64,000 nucleotides of DNA. Source: Candidatus Woesearchaeota archaeon (lineage in GTDB: Archaea > Nanobdellota > Nanobdellia > SCGC-AAA011-G17 > GW2011-AR18). Location: NCBI GenBank assembly GCA_018302765.1, contig JAGVZG010000002.1, positions 32,001 through 96,000 of the forward strand, read 5' to 3'. The position numbers and the translations under genes are program-made. Position 1 is the first letter of the stretch. Every line of letters begins with the position of its first letter. This document shows, piece after piece, positions 3,167-59,590 of this stretch. A model generated the notes under the pieces. That model worked only from the letters and a program-made list of their open reading frames with translations, did no database searches and was not told the origin of the DNA.

Positions 3167-3318
3167 AAATATCTTTAGATTTAATAATATTTAAAACTAA
3201 CTGAAAACCAATAAATTTATTGATATTCCTTGTTCGATCTAATGCCTTTTTCGCTAATTAAATTTCCAAATATATTAGATCAGAAAACTATAAATAGAAT
3301 AAAAGCTAAGATAATACT

Positions 3319-3840
3319 ATGAAAAGATATAAAATAAAGAATTATATTTATACAATACCTAACTTCATTACTTTGTTCAGATTTCTACTAATACCATTTA
3401 TTTTATATTTTATAGTAAAAGACAGAATGATTATTGTCTTAACTTTATTTGCTATTTCAACATTATCAGACATGTTTGATGGTTTGTTAGCAAGAAAACT
3501 AAATCAATCTAGCTATTATGGTGGGATGTTTGATGCTCTAACAGACACTATTTTAATATTGACAACAATAACGTTTTCTTATCTGACAAACCATATATCT
3601 GCAGTAGTTTTAGTGGCTTTGCTAGCGCCTAAAATAATAACATTCTTATTACTAACTTTCTTACATAAGGCAGAATACAAACCAACAATATTTTCTAGAC
3701 TATCTTCTTTATTTTTTTATTTGTCAATACCTATTTTTTTATTAGACATCCATACTGCAATAGAATACTTATTAATAGCTATAATTTATGTTTTATCTTT
3801 AATACACTGGACAAAATTGTTTATTTTAAGATTTAAGTAA
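3319..3840 (+). CDS. CDP-alcohol phosphatidyltransferase
   Basis: TIPNFIT and DMFDGLLAR...GGMFDALTD signature; hydrophobic helices. Confidence 0.92.
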   Translation: MKRYKIKNYIYTIPNFITLFRFLLIPFILYFIVKDRMIIVLTLFAISTLSDMFDGLLARKLNQSSYYGGMFDALTDTILILTTITFSYLTNHISAVVLVALLAPKIITFLLLTFLHKAEYKPTIFSRLSSLFFYLSIPIFLLDIHTAIEYLLIAIIYVLSLIHWTKLFILRFK

Positions 3841-21603: not shown

Positions 21604-22251
21604 ATGTATTATAAAGATTTAGATTATTTAAAACAAGCTTATTCTCAGAGAAAAGAAATAATACAAAATAGATTAAAATATTTCAAAAGTGTCTGGAATG
21701 AAGACGAAAAAAGAATATTTGCTGAATTATGCTTTTGCTTGTTGACACCGCAAAGCAAAGCAAAACTATGTGATGCTGCAATACAAAATCTAGTAAAAAC
21801 AAACCTATTATTTACTGGAAAGGAACAGGACATTAAAGATTATCTAATAGGTGTAAGGTTTAATAATAATAAATCTAGGTATATTACTGAAGCGAGAAAT
21901 ATGTTTACTAAAGACGGTAAAATTTTTATAAAAGACAAGATTAAACAATTTGACAATGAGTTAGAACTTAGGAATTGGCTAGTGGAAAATGTTAATGGTA
22001 TTGGATTGAAAGAGGCTGGGCATTTTATGCGCAATATAGGAATGTATGAAAATGTATCAATTTTAGACAGGCATATTTTAAAAAATTTACATAAACATGG
22101 TGTAATAGATGAAATTCCAAACCCTTTAACAAAAAAACAATACTTGGAAATAGAAGAAAAAATGAAATTATTTTGCAAAGAGGTTGGAATTGGTATTGAA
22201 GAAATAGACTTATTGTTCTGGTCAGAAGAGACAGGAGAAGTATTTAAGTAA
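21604..22251 (+). CDS. ogg: 8-oxoguanine DNA glycosylase/AP lyase (archaeal Ogg type)
   Basis: ELCFCLLTPQ, HhH NGIGLKEAGHFMRNIG, ILDRHIL, DLLFW. Confidence 0.92.
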   Translation: MYYKDLDYLKQAYSQRKEIIQNRLKYFKSVWNEDEKRIFAELCFCLLTPQSKAKLCDAAIQNLVKTNLLFTGKEQDIKDYLIGVRFNNNKSRYITEARNMFTKDGKIFIKDKIKQFDNELELRNWLVENVNGIGLKEAGHFMRNIGMYENVSILDRHILKNLHKHGVIDEIPNPLTKKQYLEIEEKMKLFCKEVGIGIEEIDLLFWSEETGEVFK

Positions 22252-23374
22252 AACTATTTATTGTTTTTATTAATTCATTTTCAAACCATTCTTCTTTATC
22301 AAATGGAACAAAACAACCAGCAGCAGTTTCGTGCCCACCACCTACACCAAGTTTAATTAAAATATTTCCAAGATTATAATCAGCTTTTTTTGTTCTTAAT
22401 GAATATTTTATAACATTTTTATTAATATCTTTTCCTCTCATAGCAATAACAATACCATATTCAGATTCATCTAGCATAATACTAGAGAACTTGCTCATAA
22501 ATCCACTTTTATGCATTCTTACATTATAAAATACCACATTACCTACTACTTTTTTATACTTGTCAAAATTTTTTCTTTCTTCATCAATTAAATTAGATAA
22601 TGTTAGATAATTTTTATTTAAATATTTAACACTTGGGTTTTCTGAACCATTGATAAGTTCTTCAAATCTAAATTCCTTATTTTCTAAAATTAGTTTTATT
22701 AAACTCTCATTTCCTGTTTCTTCTTCAATAATAAAAGGAGCCCAAAACATCAAGCTTAAATCAAAAAATTTGGTTTTTTTATTTCCAGCATAATAAATAT
22801 TATACCTGTCTAATTTATTTTCCTTTACTAAATTAATAAGCTCTGGAAATAAATTTCTGTAATCTAAAACTACAGAATTAATTTTATTCCTGCAATTATC
22901 AACCAGGTAATCGCAAACAGTACCTATAGCACTTATGTCTCTCCCAAATTTTACAGTTTCAGGCAATGCCATATAAACAATATCTGAAGTATTTACATTT
23001 GTTAAATTAGAACTTCTTGGGCTAAGATAAATAATTTCATCAAATTGTGTTAAATCTGTATATTGGATTGCATACCAATCAAAGGCAAGAATTTTTTGTA
23101 TATTGTTTTTTCTTAATTCATCTATTTGTTCTTTTTTAAGCCCATTTCTATTACCTTTAAAATTTGGAATTTTCTTGTGATATAATCCGTAAATAATAAC
23201 AGAAGTTATTCCATCTGGATCTTCATCACTAATTATTAGATCATAGTCCTCAACCAAATATATCCTAACTATTTTATAAAATTCCTCTAAATTATGAGCA
23301 GTAATAACCCTAACATTATTAAATTTATCAAATTCTACACTTAATTGATGGTGATCTACTATAACTAACTTCAT
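22244..23374 (-). CDS. DHH/DHHA1 family phosphoesterase (RecJ-like) with DHH tripeptide at the N-terminus
   Basis: DEDPDG motif I, DISAIGTVCD motif IV, GGGHETAAG DHHA1; VIVDHH at residues 4-9. Confidence 0.8.
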   Translation of the reverse strand: MKLVIVDHHQLSVEFDKFNNVRVITAHNLEEFYKIVRIYLVEDYDLIISDEDPDGITSVIIYGLYHKKIPNFKGNRNGLKKEQIDELRKNNIQKILAFDWYAIQYTDLTQFDEIIYLSPRSSNLTNVNTSDIVYMALPETVKFGRDISAIGTVCDYLVDNCRNKINSVVLDYRNLFPELINLVKENKLDRYNIYYAGNKKTKFFDLSLMFWAPFIIEEETGNESLIKLILENKEFRFEELINGSENPSVKYLNKNYLTLSNLIDEERKNFDKYKKVVGNVVFYNVRMHKSGFMSKFSSIMLDESEYGIVIAMRGKDINKNVIKYSLRTKKADYNLGNILIKLGVGGGHETAAGCFVPFDKEEWFENELIKTINSFT

Positions 23375-23511
23375 AAAATTTTAATTGAGTTTTAATATAA
23401 AAAACCTACTAAAATCAGAACAGTTTTAAATTTTGATAGAACATTATACTCATTTTTAAAATATATTTTAATCAATCTAAAAATTTAAAAGGATATATAG
23501 AAACCAAATTT

Positions 23512-24141
23512 ATGGGTTGGAATGAAGATTATAGTGTATATAAACATACTTATCTAGACGGCTTGTTATTGCTTGATGGTAACGTTTGTTTTAGTGATAG
23601 AGATTTGAGAAATGTCTACATTCCAACTTTACAATTAATGAAAGTTCATGAAGATCATCCTATAAAACTTACTTACGGAGGAAGAATATCTCTAAAACCA
23701 GAAGGAGATGAAAGATTAATAATGCAAATATGTAAAGATCCTGACCAAAATCTTTATGATGGTATTTCTATTTTATTTTGTCCTCCAAGTTATGATTTCC
23801 CAGAAGGTAAACAAAAATTAGTTGCTAAACAGGGATTTGAATTTTCTGATAATACAAAAGGAGACTTAACAGTAGGTTATGCAGAAGGAAGGGAACTTCC
23901 ACTTGGATGCGAAGGAATAAATACTGTTGTTCAGATACTGCCACCAATTGTATATTCTTATATTGTAAATTTCCTGGGAAGCAAACCCACAATATTTTAT
24001 TCAGAAAGATATTCTGAAAGTGGCTTCAAACCTTTAGGCAGAATAAATTTAGAAAAAGATCTTCTTGGTGTTTCAGACGTAACAACAGAGATGATTAAAA
24101 AATTAGAAGATAGATTCAAAATGCCTCTTTTAAAAAAATAA
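23512..24141 (+). CDS. Hypothetical protein
   Basis: 209-aa ORF, no recognised motif. Confidence 0.6.
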   Translation: MGWNEDYSVYKHTYLDGLLLLDGNVCFSDRDLRNVYIPTLQLMKVHEDHPIKLTYGGRISLKPEGDERLIMQICKDPDQNLYDGISILFCPPSYDFPEGKQKLVAKQGFEFSDNTKGDLTVGYAEGRELPLGCEGINTVVQILPPIVYSYIVNFLGSKPTIFYSERYSESGFKPLGRINLEKDLLGVSDVTTEMIKKLEDRFKMPLLKK

Positions 24142-24144
24142 ATC

Positions 24145-24999
24145 TTAAATTTTATTTCCTATCAACAGGTCTTCAATTTTTTCCAGGTCATTAATTCTAT
24201 TTTCTATTGGCAGAGCATTGCTGTGCAAATTCCAGAAAACTTTCTCTAGCCATTCCACCCATTCTTTGTCATAAATATTGTATATGAGGTAAACATCCTT
24301 ATTAATTTCATTATCTTTATAGTCACTTTTTTTCTTTTCATCCCTTAATCTAATAATTTTATCATCTATTACAAATCCCCTTAATGGCTGCTCAATATGC
24401 CTTACTTCTACAGCATCGTAGCCAATTAGATTATTAAGCTCCAAAATTTTTTTTATGTTTGCTATAGAAGCTATATCTACCCTACACAGGATTTTTATGT
24501 TAATTCTTTTTCTTGCTAGTTCTACAATAATATCAATCAATCTTTTTCCATTCTCTGTATTATTAATAAATGATATATTACCTGAGAAAATAAACAACTG
24601 TCTTGATGTATTTTTTATAAGATCTATTAATTTTTGTTCATCTGCTTTGTCATTAGGCATAACAAAAGCGTCCTTTTTATTGTGGTCAACTAAACTATAT
24701 ATATCAAAAGGGTTGAAATCCTGCTTTTTCTTCCCAGTTTTTATTTTATCTAGTAATATTTGCTGAGCTGTACTAGCTCTCATGCCTTCCAAATTAGCCC
24801 AATAAACAATCTTTAAAGCTCCTCTGGTACCACCTCTAAATGTTTTTATCTTAATTGTTCCATATTTTTCTATCATATAATTTAGATACTTGTCAGCTGT
24901 TACCCAGCTTACTTTTAGCAGTTCAGAAATTTCTTTAACAGCTCTGGGCTGTTTATAAACAAATTCATTGACTGCTTTTATAGCGTCAGGAGTAAGCAT
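24145..24999 (-). CDS. wHTH regulator with TrmB-like/PLD-fold C-terminal domain
   Basis: AVKEISELLKVSWVTADKYL HTH; QLFIFSG...IKILCR...GFVIDDK PLD-like strand pattern lacking the HxK His. Confidence 0.7.
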   Translation of the reverse strand: MLTPDAIKAVNEFVYKQPRAVKEISELLKVSWVTADKYLNYMIEKYGTIKIKTFRGGTRGALKIVYWANLEGMRASTAQQILLDKIKTGKKKQDFNPFDIYSLVDHNKKDAFVMPNDKADEQKLIDLIKNTSRQLFIFSGNISFINNTENGKRLIDIIVELARKRINIKILCRVDIASIANIKKILELNNLIGYDAVEVRHIEQPLRGFVIDDKIIRLRDEKKKSDYKDNEINKDVYLIYNIYDKEWVEWLEKVFWNLHSNALPIENRINDLEKIEDLLIGNKI

Positions 25000-25076
25000 A
25001 TTATTCTAAAACTTAAACACTATATAAGTTTTTTGATGGTTAATTACTATATTTACTAAAACACTTACATACTTAT

Positions 25077-26030
25077 ATGGATTTAGCAGTATGTGACCAA
25101 TATAAAAAAGTTAAATTACAAGTACAAATACACACAAAAGAATTAACAGATTATTTGCACAGCATAGAACATTCTTTGCAATTATTAGAAGATACTAATA
25201 AAAGAAAAGATGTAACTTCTATTTTACTGGAGTTTACAAAAACGTCACAGTTATCTCTACTTGGAGATGAAGCTAAAACTTTAGATGTAGTACTAGAAAA
25301 TTTACTGGATTTAAGAAGGGCTAAAAGACCGTTATATAAAAGGTTTAAAATAAAAGTAGGTGAAAAAATAAGAGATATATCTGTACCACAAAAATCATTA
25401 GAATTATTTCTTAAATATTATGTTTCGCCACTTATAGATCATGCAAAGTGCCATGCTCAATCACATGGTGGTGAAGTGGGATGTACTCCAAAGTACAGCA
25501 TTAAATCTATCTTACCTGTTGAATTTGTTTTGTCATTTGATCTTAAAGATGCTTATAAAAATATAGACTTGCAGTATATATTTGATTTTTATTATGATTT
25601 AATATTTGAAAAAACAAAAGACGTTGAGAAAAGCAAGCAAACTGCTGGATTTTTAGCTGGAGTATCAACTGTTTATTATGCAGATCGTGGATATGCACTT
25701 CCACAAGGATCACCAATATGTTCAAAATTATTTAACAGAGTATTGCTTCCTATTGATAATTTACTATACAAATATTCTTTAGAAATCGGTCTGGATTATG
25801 TAAGATGGGTAGATGACTTTATTTTTAGCTCTAGTGATTGTGGTTTAACATTAGACAAATTTGTTAAAACTTTAGATATTGTCAGAAATTATTTTCCTAT
25901 ATCTGAGAATAAAACATACTTTCAAAGAAAACATCCGGTATATCTTTTAGGACATAAAATTGTTGGCACAGATATAAGTGAGGCGACAACAGAGGAGTTG
26001 GAAACAAGACGCCAAATTAATTTATCATGA
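25077..26030 (+). CDS. Retron-like reverse transcriptase (atypical motifs, short thumb)
   Basis: YKRFKIK...RDISVP, SFDLKDAYKNI, LPQGSPICS, YVRWVDDFIFS, ISENKT, YLLG. Confidence 0.9.
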   Translation: MDLAVCDQYKKVKLQVQIHTKELTDYLHSIEHSLQLLEDTNKRKDVTSILLEFTKTSQLSLLGDEAKTLDVVLENLLDLRRAKRPLYKRFKIKVGEKIRDISVPQKSLELFLKYYVSPLIDHAKCHAQSHGGEVGCTPKYSIKSILPVEFVLSFDLKDAYKNIDLQYIFDFYYDLIFEKTKDVEKSKQTAGFLAGVSTVYYADRGYALPQGSPICSKLFNRVLLPIDNLLYKYSLEIGLDYVRWVDDFIFSSSDCGLTLDKFVKTLDIVRNYFPISENKTYFQRKHPVYLLGHKIVGTDISEATTEELETRRQINLS

Positions 26031-26076
26031 TATAATTAGATTAATCAGCCTATATGCAAATAGAACATGGATAAAT

Positions 26077-26400
26077 ATGAAAAGTAGAACTAATGATATA
26101 GAAAGCAAATATAGAGTTAAAAAATCATATTCACAAGTTAAACAAAACATAGAACTTTCTTATCTTAGAAGCTTGGATATTGATACAAAAATATTATTGT
26201 CTTTTTATCTATTTGGAGAAATCCCTCAAGTTTTAGTTGCTTTTATAGTAGGCGTTAAACAAGAAACTGTTTCTAGAAGTGTTAAAAGACTAAAGAAAGA
26301 AGGTAAAATAGAAACTATTGGCAGAAAAAAACAACTATATGGAAGTGTTGCTAAAGATTACAAGATTGAACTAAGTGAACTATCTGCTTTATTAATATAA
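26077..26400 (+). CDS. Small winged-helix DNA-binding protein downstream of the RT
   Basis: IPQVLVAFIVGVKQETVSRSVKRLKKEGKIE wHTH; in-frame ATG at 26077 preferred over the overlapping GTG at 25978. Confidence 0.75.
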   Translation: MKSRTNDIESKYRVKKSYSQVKQNIELSYLRSLDIDTKILLSFYLFGEIPQVLVAFIVGVKQETVSRSVKRLKKEGKIETIGRKKQLYGSVAKDYKIELSELSALLI

Positions 26401-26446
26401 AAATTAACAAAAACATTAAAATATCCAATAGATACTATATTTTACA

Positions 26447-28444
26447 ATGTTAATATTTACAAAAGAGGATTTATCATTAGACAAAGCCAAGGAAAAGGAG
26501 TGGATTATAACAAATGGCTTAGGAAGTTATTCCTCATCTACAGTTATTGGATTAAATACTAGAAAGTACCATGGATTGCTTGTTGCTGCATTAAAAAAAC
26601 CATTAAATAGAAATCTGTTATTAAGCAAATTTGAGGAAGAGGTTATAATAGAAAACAGGTCTTACAAGTTAGGAATAAATAAATATCCTGAAGTTTATTA
26701 CCCACAAGGCAATGATTATTTAGAGGGTTTTGTATTTGGTATTTATCCTACTTTTAATTATAAAGTTGAAAATATAGACATAATAAAATCAATCTGCATG
26801 ATTGCAAATAACAATGCAGTTGTTGTTTCTTATAAAATAATCTCAGAAAAACCATTTAGATTAAAAGTTATGCCATTAATTAATTGCAGGGAATTTCATA
26901 GTATTACTAAAGAACCAGGCTGGGTATTTAATCAATCAGCAGGGCAAAGAACAACAGTTATCAGGCCAAGCTATGAAGGATCTCCAGCAATAATTATGGG
27001 CTGTGATAAAGGCGTATACAAACAAAAAGGCTTGTGGTTTTACAATATGGAGTATGAACAAGAAGTACTAAGGGGCTATGATTACACAGAAAATCATTTT
27101 TGTCCTGGAGAATTTATTGTTGATATAAAAAAAGGAAATAGCATTGTAAATTTTTTAGTTGTTGGGGACAATGCTGATGAAGCTTACATATCATTTGACA
27201 ATTTATATTCTTCAGATGAGAAAGAATACAAAAAATTCTTTGAATATGAAATCAATAGGATAAAATCACTGGTAAAAACATGCTATTCTTTTAATAGTAT
27301 AAAACAAGATGTTTTACTGCCTTACTTATTGCAGGCTTCAGATCAGTTTATAGTAAAAAATCCAACAACAGACAGCAAATCAGTAATTGCTGGTTATCAT
27401 TGGTTTGATGATTATGGAAGAGACGCTCTTATTTCACTTCCAGGAATTTGTTTAACTACTGGAAGAATCAATGAAGCCAAGGAACTGCTACTGCATTATG
27501 CAAGGCAATGTAAGAATGGATTAATACCTAACAGAACAAAAGATAGTGGAGATGTAGAATATTCTTCAGTTGATACATCACTTTGGTTTATTTATGCAAC
27601 TTACAAATTCTACAAATACACAAATAATTTAGATTTTATAAGATTAAATCTGTGGAGTAAAATAAAGGAAATAATAAATTACTATAAATTTAGTACAGGT
27701 TTTGGAATTGAAATGAAGCAAGATGGTTTAATTTCTACAAATTCTGATTTACCTTTGACTTGGATGGATACAAAGTACACACTAAGGAAAGGTAAGTGTG
27801 TTGAGATAAATGCTTTATGGTACAATGCATTAAAAATTTCAGAGCTATTTGCTAAAAGATTTAAAGAAGATTTTGAAGAATATTTAGTTATTAGCAACTT
27901 AGTAAAAAAATCATTTGGTGATAAATTCTGGAATCATGAAGAGAATTGTTTATATGACAGAATTGAAAATAATTTTAAGGATGCAAGTATAAGACCAAAC
28001 CAGGTATTTGCTATTTCATTACCATTTAGTATTTTAAATCTAAAAAAAGAATACTTTGTTGTTAAAAAAATTACAGAAGACCTGCTTACACCATATGGAT
28101 TAAGAAGCTTAAGCAATAAAGACAAAAATTATATTGGGGTTTATAAAGGAAATCAAGAAGAAAGAGACAAAGCTTATCATAATGGGACTTCATGGGGCTG
28201 GCTATTAGGCCCTTATATTACAGCTTATTTAAAAATTCATGACTATTCTAAAAAAGGAAAAGAAGAAGCAACTGAAAAAATAATAAAAAACATTGTGCAT
28301 AGTTTGAAAGACTATGGCATAGGAACCATTTCTGAAATATACGATGGAGATTTTCCTTATACTTCAAGAGGATGTATAAGCCAGGCTTGGAGCGTAGCTG
28401 AGATAACAAGGGCATATGTTGAAGATATATTAAAAAACCAGTAA
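26447..28444 (+). CDS. Glycogen debranching enzyme (amylo-alpha-1,6-glucosidase family)
   Basis: EWIITNGLGSYSSS, RKYHGLL, AGYHWFDDYGRD, TWMD, RPNQ, YHNGTSWGW, SQAWSVAE. Confidence 0.95.
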   Translation: MLIFTKEDLSLDKAKEKEWIITNGLGSYSSSTVIGLNTRKYHGLLVAALKKPLNRNLLLSKFEEEVIIENRSYKLGINKYPEVYYPQGNDYLEGFVFGIYPTFNYKVENIDIIKSICMIANNNAVVVSYKIISEKPFRLKVMPLINCREFHSITKEPGWVFNQSAGQRTTVIRPSYEGSPAIIMGCDKGVYKQKGLWFYNMEYEQEVLRGYDYTENHFCPGEFIVDIKKGNSIVNFLVVGDNADEAYISFDNLYSSDEKEYKKFFEYEINRIKSLVKTCYSFNSIKQDVLLPYLLQASDQFIVKNPTTDSKSVIAGYHWFDDYGRDALISLPGICLTTGRINEAKELLLHYARQCKNGLIPNRTKDSGDVEYSSVDTSLWFIYATYKFYKYTNNLDFIRLNLWSKIKEIINYYKFSTGFGIEMKQDGLISTNSDLPLTWMDTKYTLRKGKCVEINALWYNALKISELFAKRFKEDFEEYLVISNLVKKSFGDKFWNHEENCLYDRIENNFKDASIRPNQVFAISLPFSILNLKKEYFVVKKITEDLLTPYGLRSLSNKDKNYIGVYKGNQEERDKAYHNGTSWGWLLGPYITAYLKIHDYSKKGKEEATEKIIKNIVHSLKDYGIGTISEIYDGDFPYTSRGCISQAWSVAEITRAYVEDILKNQ

Positions 28445-28606
28445 ACATAAGCTGTAATGTTAGCTACACCAAATAATATGGCAAAGCTAAATATAAATAT
28501 AAGAATTAAAAAAAATATTTATTGTCTTTTAGATACGTCCAATAAAACCTAATGCTGCCCACGAACAAATGCGAAAATTTAAATTATGAATAAATAACAA
28601 ACAATT

Positions 28607-29098
28607 ATGTATGATCCAAAAAAAGCACACTATATTGTTGTAACAGGAATAATTATTAAACATGAAAAATTTTTAATTACAAAAAGAGCGCCAACTGAAA
28701 AAGCATTTCCAAACCAATGGACTGTTCCGGGCGGGAAATTAGAATTAGATGACTACGCAAAAAGACCAAAAGACACTTCTGCCCATTGGTATAATATTTT
28801 TGAAGACTTGTTAAAAAGAGAAGTTATGGAAGAAGTTGGTTTGACTATGAAAAATATTCGTTATTTAACAAGTCTTTCATACATTCGTTCTGATAATATA
28901 CCTACAATTATTGTTAGTCTTTTTGCTGACTACCATGAAGGAGAAGTTAAACTTTGTCCTGCCCTTACAGAATACGCTTGGGTAACTCTCAAAGAAGCAA
29001 AGAATTATGAATTAATTGAAGGCATATATGAAGAATTGGAAATGCTTGATAAAATCCTTAAAGGAAAAGAAGTTAGGGTTTGGCAAAAGAAAGAATAG
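28607..29098 (+). CDS. NUDIX hydrolase
   Basis: WTVPGGKLE...LKREVMEEVG Nudix box with an insertion. Confidence 0.9.
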   Translation: MYDPKKAHYIVVTGIIIKHEKFLITKRAPTEKAFPNQWTVPGGKLELDDYAKRPKDTSAHWYNIFEDLLKREVMEEVGLTMKNIRYLTSLSYIRSDNIPTIIVSLFADYHEGEVKLCPALTEYAWVTLKEAKNYELIEGIYEELEMLDKILKGKEVRVWQKKE

Positions 29099-29270
29099 GT
29101 GCATGTGTTTTTCACTCTAATTTAGTGCCATCGCTACTTGTTCACTTTGTTCGCACCGAAATTTTCTCATATGCAGTGTAGGAAAAGAAATTAACAAGAA
29201 TTATATGTACTGCTTACTTAACAGCTCAAGTAAACAAAAACATTATATATAATCAGAAATTAATAATTTC

Positions 29271-30110
29271 ATGAGCATTGGAAGCTTAGCTAAAAAAGCA
29301 GGTTTAGGCTTATTATTAATTTTTGGAGCGCCGGCTGTAGTTGCTGGAGGACTTAAGCTTGCAGAAATGTACTTAGCAAACTTAGACAAAAAAGACCAGG
29401 AAGCATTCAAAGCTGCAATGGCTTCTTATGACAACGCTGTAGAAGCATATAACAGAAGCGACTATAGGGCTGCAAGAACACATTTAGAAAACACAAGAAC
29501 TTTATTGAAAAGTCTTAGAATGGTTCAGGACAAAAAAACTATTGACAATTTTGTTAATATGTTGGATTGCATGGTAAATGCACAAGAGCAAATAGATAAA
29601 GAAAAATACAGAGAGGCATTAGACTGGATAATTAAAGCTAAAGAATATTTAAAAGGTATAGAATTTTCAGACCTAACTAAGTATGACAATTTATACCAAA
29701 AACTAAGAGAATTAGAAAGACTTGTAGGAGAAGGTATAAAAGAAAAGAAAGTAGAAGAAAATATGAAAAAAGTTTCTCCATTGTATAAAAAAGCACTTGC
29801 TGCATTTAAAAAAAACAGATTTAAGATAGCAATGGATTTTTCATATCAGGCATTAGTTATAATGAAAAAATCTAAAGTAGAAGATGATACTGGCTTAGTT
29901 AAAAAATTTGGTGATCTTGCTACGCTATGTAAATTAATACAGGAAAAAATAATACAAGGTAATTATGGAACTGCTATGAGGTGGGTTGAAGATGGAATAA
30001 GAATTGTAAATTCTGCAGGCTTTCCGGCAGATGACAAAGACATGATACTTGAAAAATTATTAGATTTCAGATCTACAATAGAATCTGCAGGAGCACGCGC
30101 AGAGCTTTAA
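29271..30110 (+). CDS. Membrane-anchored helical (TPR-like) protein with an internal duplication
   Basis: N-terminal TM helix; two similar ~125-aa modules (AYNRSDY...EKYREALDWI vs AFKKNRF...GNYGTAMRWV). Confidence 0.65.
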   Translation: MSIGSLAKKAGLGLLLIFGAPAVVAGGLKLAEMYLANLDKKDQEAFKAAMASYDNAVEAYNRSDYRAARTHLENTRTLLKSLRMVQDKKTIDNFVNMLDCMVNAQEQIDKEKYREALDWIIKAKEYLKGIEFSDLTKYDNLYQKLRELERLVGEGIKEKKVEENMKKVSPLYKKALAAFKKNRFKIAMDFSYQALVIMKKSKVEDDTGLVKKFGDLATLCKLIQEKIIQGNYGTAMRWVEDGIRIVNSAGFPADDKDMILEKLLDFRSTIESAGARAEL

Positions 30111-59494: not shown

Positions 59495-59590
59495 CGCCGG
59501 CGACAGGATTTGAACCTGCAAGTCCTTTCGGACGGCAGTTTTCGAGATTCAGCAATTATTCTGCTGCCCTACCAATTAGGCGACGCCGGC
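59495..59590 (-). tRNA. tRNA-Ser(CGA) with 13-nt intron at 30/31 (59548-59560)
   Basis: Acceptor GCCGGCG/CGCCGGC, discriminator G, loop CT-CGA-AA, variable arm GTCC-GAAA-GGAC, T stem GCAGG/CCTGT; BHB central helix CAGC/GCTG. Confidence 0.93.

Follow-up and report, generated by a model that had tools for sequence, protein, structure and literature searches.

The window, by which we mean the whole 64,000-nucleotide stretch analysed here, carries on its forward strand (25077–26030) an intact reverse transcriptase (RT). It is a real gene, and the family to which it belongs is small, restricted to tiny DPANN archaea and apparently undescribed. With somewhat better than even confidence, we read the 317-aa product as a solo, thumbless RT related to those of retrons, which is probably controlled by a TrmB-like regulator, makes short DNA, takes a template that does not lie beside its gene and has a dispensable accessory role. 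The prokaryotic RTs of established role are mostly parts of mobile elements or of defence modules that are organized around a dedicated RNA, usually together with a partner.

The reading frame of 317 codons is uninterrupted, in surroundings of ~29–30% G+C, and its product matches Pfam RVT_1 (E 2.3e-10). Many retron RT models of PADLOC match it as well, the best being RT_III-A with 69 bits (E 8e-20); the NCBIfam model retron_St85 gave 67 bits, with a cut-off of 235. The catalytic residues D155, D246 and D247 are present. The first-pass annotation had described a palm that matches retron-type RTs motif by motif, and every motif that it quoted was found in the protein: Y87-x-x-F-x-I...R99-x-I-x-x-P104, D155-L-K-D-A-Y, LPQGSP at residues 208–213, Y241-x-R-W-V-D-D-F-I-F-S and K279-T. 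The altered retron hallmarks that it had listed are also there, namely WVDD (244–247), SIKSI (141–145) and LLG (290–292), as is the short C-terminus, with just 25 residues following G292. Residues A159 and Y160, in the DAY motif, occupy the location of the steric gate of HIV RT, which suggests that the enzyme is a DNA polymerase using dNTPs. The source genome (1.02 Mb, 100% complete) has a single copy of this RT. Contigs from four public DNA runs were identical to the window sequence and contained no disruptive variants or, indeed, any variants at all. Among the public runs that hold the sequence, none of RNA was listed.

We built an AlphaFold model of the window RT with ten relatives (pLDDT 86). 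Residues 41–307 of the model align with retron RTs, with Z-scores of 20.7 for Eco2 and 19.9 for Ec86; the part of Ec86 covered comprises residues 21–260. The rmsd to retron RTs was ~3 Å over ~235 residues at 20–22% identity. Other RTs scored 16.6 (group II intron RTs) or ~15 (G2L4, DGR and DRT2). The top structural matches were all retron RTs (Z 17–20.7) for two independent models, that of the window RT and that of P0043, a typical family member (pLDDT 94.9). As modelled, the fingers and palm of the window RT are thus of the retron-type fold, and neither the model nor the structure comparison revealed an extra domain.

The thumb of Ec86 (residues ~260–262 to 320) found no counterpart in the window model, from which we conclude that the window RT has no thumb. 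P0043 also aligned with residues 21–262 of Ec86 only, and thumblessness is therefore a trait of the whole family. An RT without a thumb is expected to have low processivity and to produce short DNA. At the other end of the protein, an N-terminal extension of ~80 aa had been claimed, which proved to be overstated: residue 41 of the model pairs with residue 21 of Ec86, so that the excess relative to Ec86 is only ~20 residues.

Word-indexed and exhaustive profile searches yielded ~75–85 clusters (50% identity) scoring above 110 bits, which we take as the family; beneath these, ordinary retron-like RTs form a continuum with scores not exceeding 100 bits. All named relatives come from Woese-, Pace- or Nanoarchaeota MAGs; the lone record that bears the label 'Patescibacteria' agrees with a Woesearchaeota contig in both gene map and match statistics. 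No relative was found among viral contigs (IMG/VR), and a viral origin of the RT was rejected on this ground. The profile matches also included large RT-domain proteins, one of them a protein kinase-RT fusion, whose scores fall between those of the family and those of ordinary retron RTs; as a functional clue they provided no lead. A full-text search of the literature returned no description of the family.

We computed a tree of 61 full-length members and the 63 nearest non-family, retron-like RTs. The 61 members form one clade, whose split has a support of 1.0 and whose stem measures 1.23 substitutions per site. An RT phylogeny had been proposed as a check on the view that this is an atypical retron-like RT fitting no described type, and the separate clade bears that view out. 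So do the PADLOC scores: ten ordinary retron-like RTs reached 118–486 bits on their best PADLOC type and mostly 100–230 bits on other types, compared with a maximum of 69 bits for the window RT, which therefore lies farther from all retron types than these lie from one another.

Eight residues are invariant in the family (R99, D155, G211, R221, R243, D246, D247 and K279), and all eight are kept in the window RT. The near-invariant positions include H126, H130, G131, E133, W136, S141, H145 and W244. Throughout the family, NAxxH is replaced by SxxxH (S141/H145), VTG by LLG and YADD by RWxDD. A median of 41 residues follows the position of G292 (25 in the window RT), and in most members the last residues of the protein are a conserved Y-x-x-W, which WFG often precedes. 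The longer members from Nano- and Pacearchaeota have instead an acidic tail whose final residue is F (e.g. ...DDLPF), which to the eye resembles a partner-binding tail. Pairs from one branch of the family, termed clade B, gave dN/dS values of 0.17–0.23, with dS near saturation; together with the invariant catalytic residues and the long frames kept open in 30% GC DNA, these values show, at the level of sequence comparison, that the family is under purifying selection.

The RT is rare. It was present in three of 400 genomes across the class and in four of 24 from the organism's own taxonomic family, and in none of 16 other families of the order. We examined 36 RT loci, which fall into three syntenic contexts. 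In context A, that of the window, a divergent TrmB-like gene is followed by the RT, a variable small gene and a glycogen debranching enzyme. Context B consists of topoisomerase I, the TrmB-like gene, up to two small genes, the RT and a convergent metallophosphoesterase, and context C of DUF192, a small basic protein, the RT and Kae1/TsaD. One locus (L061) bridges the contexts by joining Kae1, DUF192, the TrmB-like gene, the RT and YchF. The distances between RTs correlate with those between TrmB-like proteins (r 0.67, a value reached by 2 of 2000 Mantel permutations). In a sister genus belonging to the window's clade (genome G006), the RT is a pseudogene in which the YxDD region is deleted; a second suspected pseudogene (L041) was rejected, as its frame is open. 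We read the RT as an old chromosomal gene that is vertically inherited and frequently lost.

The clade that includes the window (clade A) looks derived within the family, to judge from its sequences. It has lost the C-terminal YxxW motif, and its ratio of RT to regulator divergence is 2.1–2.9, versus a median of ~1.25 in clade B. The window protein alone has the changes W136C and H145I, where 88% and 98% of the family, respectively, keep the original residue. On account of the changed residues, the loss of YxxW and the faster divergence, the window copy may be losing or changing its function. These features would also fit a relic, i.e. an ancestral RT whose frame is still open in this lineage but whose original job is gone, as would the copy without YxDD region in the sister genus and the lack of the RT in most related genomes. 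We consider a relic unlikely, since a frame of this length has stayed open in 30% GC DNA and all eight invariants, including the catalytic triad, are kept. Moreover, three clade-A species, ~50% identical to one another, all have a full-length RT, the start codon and promoter of the window RT are conserved, and the contigs of the four runs are free of disruptive variants.

A TrmB-like transcription regulator of 284 aa, with an N-terminal wHTH and a TrmB/PLD-like C-terminal domain, is encoded on the opposite strand at 24145–24999. The first-pass annotation had placed a divergent HTH-PLD-fold gene 77 bp upstream of the RT, and the gap indeed measures exactly 77 nt (25000–25076); it is a divergent promoter region common to the two genes. 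Orthologues of the TrmB-like protein are 65–84% identical. The gene adjoins the RT in 19 of the 36 loci. Sixteen of 41 relatives have it as well, the majority of these sixteen being RT-less, and searches of two genomes that do carry the RT (G312 and G377, 88–90% complete) did not find it. We therefore rejected the TrmB-like gene as an obligate partner of the RT.

In context A, the region 25000–25076 holds two AAACAC-TATATAA-like units, and the corresponding region of clade B (context B) has a TGACA-N6-TGTCA palindrome amid TATA-like elements. The 77-nt region is near-identical in related RT loci and likewise in G008 and G017, two genomes without the RT, where the conservation extends to the site of the start codon; in G008 and G017, another gene occupies the RT slot behind the conserved promoter region. 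Our comparison of divergent promoters comprised the window (25000–25076), L025:6020–6137 (−), L020:540–653 (−) and the intergenic regions of L037, L059, L061, L067 and L068. Across genera, the genes found behind the conserved promoter were the RT, a gene for a 125-aa Cys-rich protein, a thymidine-kinase-like gene and unknowns. At other loci, the genes of this divergent slot or operon encode thymidine-kinase-like, AAA_28, KTI12/thymidylate-kinase-like and CYTH proteins as well as unknowns. Going by adjacency and the conserved intergenic sequence, the TrmB-like protein probably regulates the divergent slot, and we infer that it may drive a slot of variable cargo, the RT being one such cargo. A related reading takes the RT for an anciently domesticated solo polymerase of Nanobdellota-type DPANN archaea that can do without a thumb, an effector or an RNA gene of its own. 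It would work on cellular RNA or gapped DNA, in connection with repair or nucleotide salvage, or would prime from a residue of the C-terminal Y-x-x-W tail, behind a TrmB-like operator with interchangeable cargo; we hold this reading to be unlikely.

The genes that flank the window RT are ordinary housekeeping genes. At 21604–23374 and 26447–29098 lie those for an Ogg glycosylase, a RecJ-like DHH/DHHA1 protein, a 209-aa unknown, a glycogen debranching enzyme (GDE_N/GDE_C) and a NUDIX hydrolase. Searches with Pfam and PADLOC among the neighbours between 21604 and 29098 returned no cas family.

Free-standing chromosomal RTs without a retroelement RNA have a precedent in G2L4, which is a DNA-break repair enzyme and gave a structural Z of 15. 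By analogy, the window RT might be a domesticated polymerase of housekeeping type that acts in repair or nucleotide salvage and is co-regulated with nucleotide-handling genes by the TrmB-like protein. Members of the family are found near genes for Ogg, RecJ-like DHH, PolX, an RNase T-like exonuclease, MGMT, NUDIX, topoisomerase I and MCM proteins, and the same slot or operon elsewhere carries the kinase-like, AAA_28 and CYTH proteins named above. Such a polymerase would not need a dedicated RNA, and vertical descent would suit it. However, small DPANN genomes are rich in genes of these kinds anyway, so that this neighbourhood is weak evidence, and a gene present in ~1% of class genomes is too rare for core repair. 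In addition, G2L4 has retained a thumb and is a member of the group II lineage, whereas the window family is thumbless and retron-like: its fold is nearer to retron RTs (Z ~20) than to G2L4 (Z 15), and TIGR04416 gave only 17.9 bits with the window RT (cut-off 300). We regard a housekeeping polymerase as quite unlikely.

The RT had originally been proposed to form a system with a small winged-helix gene that follows on the same strand. An ORF that ends at 26400 on the forward strand is present, encoding 107 aa from an ATG (26077–26400) or 140 aa from a GTG at 25978. Its wHTH signals are weak and below threshold (HTH_24 with 21.8 bits at a cut-off of 21.9; ArsR/MarR-like Atlas neighbours, 0.87). 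No homologue was found in 40 related genomes. At other RT loci, the downstream slot is taken by unrelated genes, namely those for an M78-like HExxH protein, unknowns of 140–223 aa, Kae1/TsaD or a convergent metallophosphoesterase. Homologues of the RT have thus not kept the wHTH neighbour; what lies downstream changes from one genome to almost every other, and the only gene common to all 36 loci is the RT. With an orphan ORF in a position that varies between loci, we rejected a module of RT and wHTH protein. The ORF is an incidental neighbour and not part of an RT system.

Other small genes occur next to the RT in individual genomes. In the closest relative, the RT is followed by the gene for a 142-aa protein (L028:4933–5361) with HELCH and a borderline match to Peptidase_M78/IrrE (22 bits, at the cut-off). 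Four loci, of clade B except for one from a close relative, have a small gene immediately upstream of the RT that is P-loop kinase-like, of CYTH type or an unknown (L038:3242–3841, L060:2992–3486, L065:2980–3504 and L029:3319–3867). The small gene abuts or overlaps the RT start in three of these four loci, which suggests that the two may be co-translated, and it differs between genomes. In the Nano- and Pacearchaeota context, a lysine-rich protein of 52–61 aa is encoded just upstream of the RT (L036:3624–3809, L007:4738–4896 and L034 at ~3290–3400). This protein (MGK-IVVKK...GHLYYVD..G.VCEA...) is conserved, has a GGAGG site and gave no Pfam match. L034, a Nanoarchaeota contig, has an unusually long spacer of 620 nt upstream of the RT and a run of N at ~3310–3320. 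Among ten RT-operon neighbours of other loci and three window neighbours, no significant match to a PADLOC defence family was obtained.

The window RT was also compared with RTs of single-gene defence systems (DRT2, DRT9, AbiK, AbiA and Abi-P2), which likewise have no separate effector gene. These RTs are equipped with additional domains at the C-terminus or have an ncRNA encoded upstream. Neither is found with the window RT, and no defence context was seen. DRT2 and DRT9 gave a structural Z of 13–16 against the window family, and NCBIfam Drt2 scored 24 bits (cut-off 390). There was no DRT or Abi model among the 25 best PADLOC matches, all of which were of retron type but for one CRISPR-associated RT.

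RTs of diversity-generating retroelements (DGRs) have DPANN hosts in common with the window family, and the same genome has two DGR-type RT genes elsewhere. One lies near the start of contig C26 (674–1594, forward strand; 306 aa) and encodes the DGR-type motifs LGNLTSQ and YVDDF; the other, on contig C10 (~88629–89477, reverse strand; 282 aa), encodes the same two motifs and has no N-terminal RT motifs. Motif 4 of the window RT reads LPQGSP in contrast to the LGNLTSQ of this genome's DGR-type RTs, its structural Z against DGR RTs is ~15, and a template/variable repeat pair is missing. A 2021 review puts the share of retrons among archaeal RTs at only 4% and describes DGRs as dominant in DPANN (PMC8632793).

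We searched for an RNA partner in several ways. A cis msr-msd was not found: the gap upstream of the RT measures 77 nt, and the searches brought up neither a significant fold nor covariation or an Rfam match. The first-pass annotation had seen little room for a classical upstream msr-msd; the gap in fact leaves none, and the promoter region that fills it is also present in RT-less genomes. Two further absences reported there were confirmed, as Rfam scans near the RT gene detected neither a group II intron nor any other RNA family, and no DGR-type repeat pair was found in 22000–30000. The 5' region of the RT, its 3' junction and the downstream ORF folded no better than shuffled sequences (z −1.6, +0.3 and +1.2, respectively), and synonymous change was not suppressed in the RT or the TrmB-like gene. 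On the basis of these values, we rejected an ncRNA both within the 5' region of the RT and within the spacer and ORF that follow it.

A further candidate lay opposite the 5' end of the regulator gene, on the antisense strand, where the window sequence folds at z −2.55. The consensus structure from seven genomes was weak (−8.7 kcal/mol), and the candidate was rejected, as the stems are not conserved (covariation term +1.06). Being coding sequence, the region is conserved to the same degree in genomes that have no RT. The flanks and the 5' part of the RT reading frame, for which a covariance analysis had been suggested, thus gave no support for an msr-msd. In the Nano- and Pacearchaeota clade, the small ORF upstream of the RT was rejected as an ncRNA, since it encodes the conserved small basic protein with the GGAGG site; a T-rich tract follows it. 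A screen of the 1.02-Mb genome for trans ncRNAs as G+C-rich islands returned the SRP RNA only, the remaining peaks being located inside ORFs. The sole Rfam match at gathering score in the 64-kb window is a tRNA (59495–59590, reverse strand), which probably bears an intron because it spans 96 nt; with introns allowed, ARAGORN found 16 tRNAs in the whole assembly.

The closest known enzymes are the RTs of bacterial retrons (Ec86/Eco1, Ec67/Eco2, Ec78, Ec83, Eco7 and Eco8; PADLOC types II-A, III-A, VI, IX and X; NCBIfam St85). They share with the window RT the fold of fingers and palm, the layout of motifs 1–7, LPQGSP, the catalytic aspartates and a size of ~300 aa. Unlike them, the window family has no thumb, and SxxxH (SIKSI in the window), LLG and RWxDD stand in for NAxxH, VTG and YADD. 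It also differs from retrons in having neither an adjacent msr-msd nor a conserved effector, in being confined to archaea and in being vertically inherited. NAxxH, VTG and the thumb have been described as the means by which retron RTs hold their RNA.

It could be argued that the locus is a three-part retron in disguise, with an msr-msd that acts in trans or overlaps the coding region, exchangeable small genes as effectors and a function in abortive-infection defence. The candidate effectors would be the wHTH ORF of the window, the M78-like peptidase, the CYTH protein, the P-loop kinases and the unknowns. Retron RTs are nearest to the window RT both in fold and by HMM, retron effectors are modular, the distribution of the RT is patchy, and small genes at L038, L060, L065 and L028 overlap the start or stop of the RT as if co-translated. 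However, none of the tests for a cis RNA found one, and the very parts with which retron RTs hold RNA are missing or changed family-wide. In one large clade, the RT sits between the gene for the small basic protein and Kae1/TsaD and has no candidate effector. Furthermore, no neighbour falls into a defence family, no relatives were detected among viral contigs, and the synteny fits vertical descent and not an island. A disguised retron thus appears improbable to us.

We therefore favour a solo, thumbless RT. The family would be derived from, or sister to, the retron RTs, as a compact, DPANN-restricted enzyme encoded by a lone gene. Its transcription would proceed from the bidirectional promoter/operator region that it has in common with the TrmB-like gene, and for this reason the TrmB-like regulator probably controls it. 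The template would be an RNA or DNA that is not encoded beside the RT, such as an RNA supplied in trans, a cellular RNA or gapped DNA. Since the gene is rare and has repeatedly been lost, its role is probably a dispensable accessory one, in conflict or stress, and not an essential one. It is the distribution of the RT, and not any defence signature, that points to this accessory role.

For the window itself, our results remove a false 'RT plus wHTH system' and identify the local copy as a member of a derived branch, which may be eroding. The family could help to root the retron lineage, and an RT of ~300 aa is of interest as a tool. If our reading is true, a vertically inherited RT of genome-reduced archaea that has no thumb, no RNA and no partner would show what a minimal RT core is capable of on its own.
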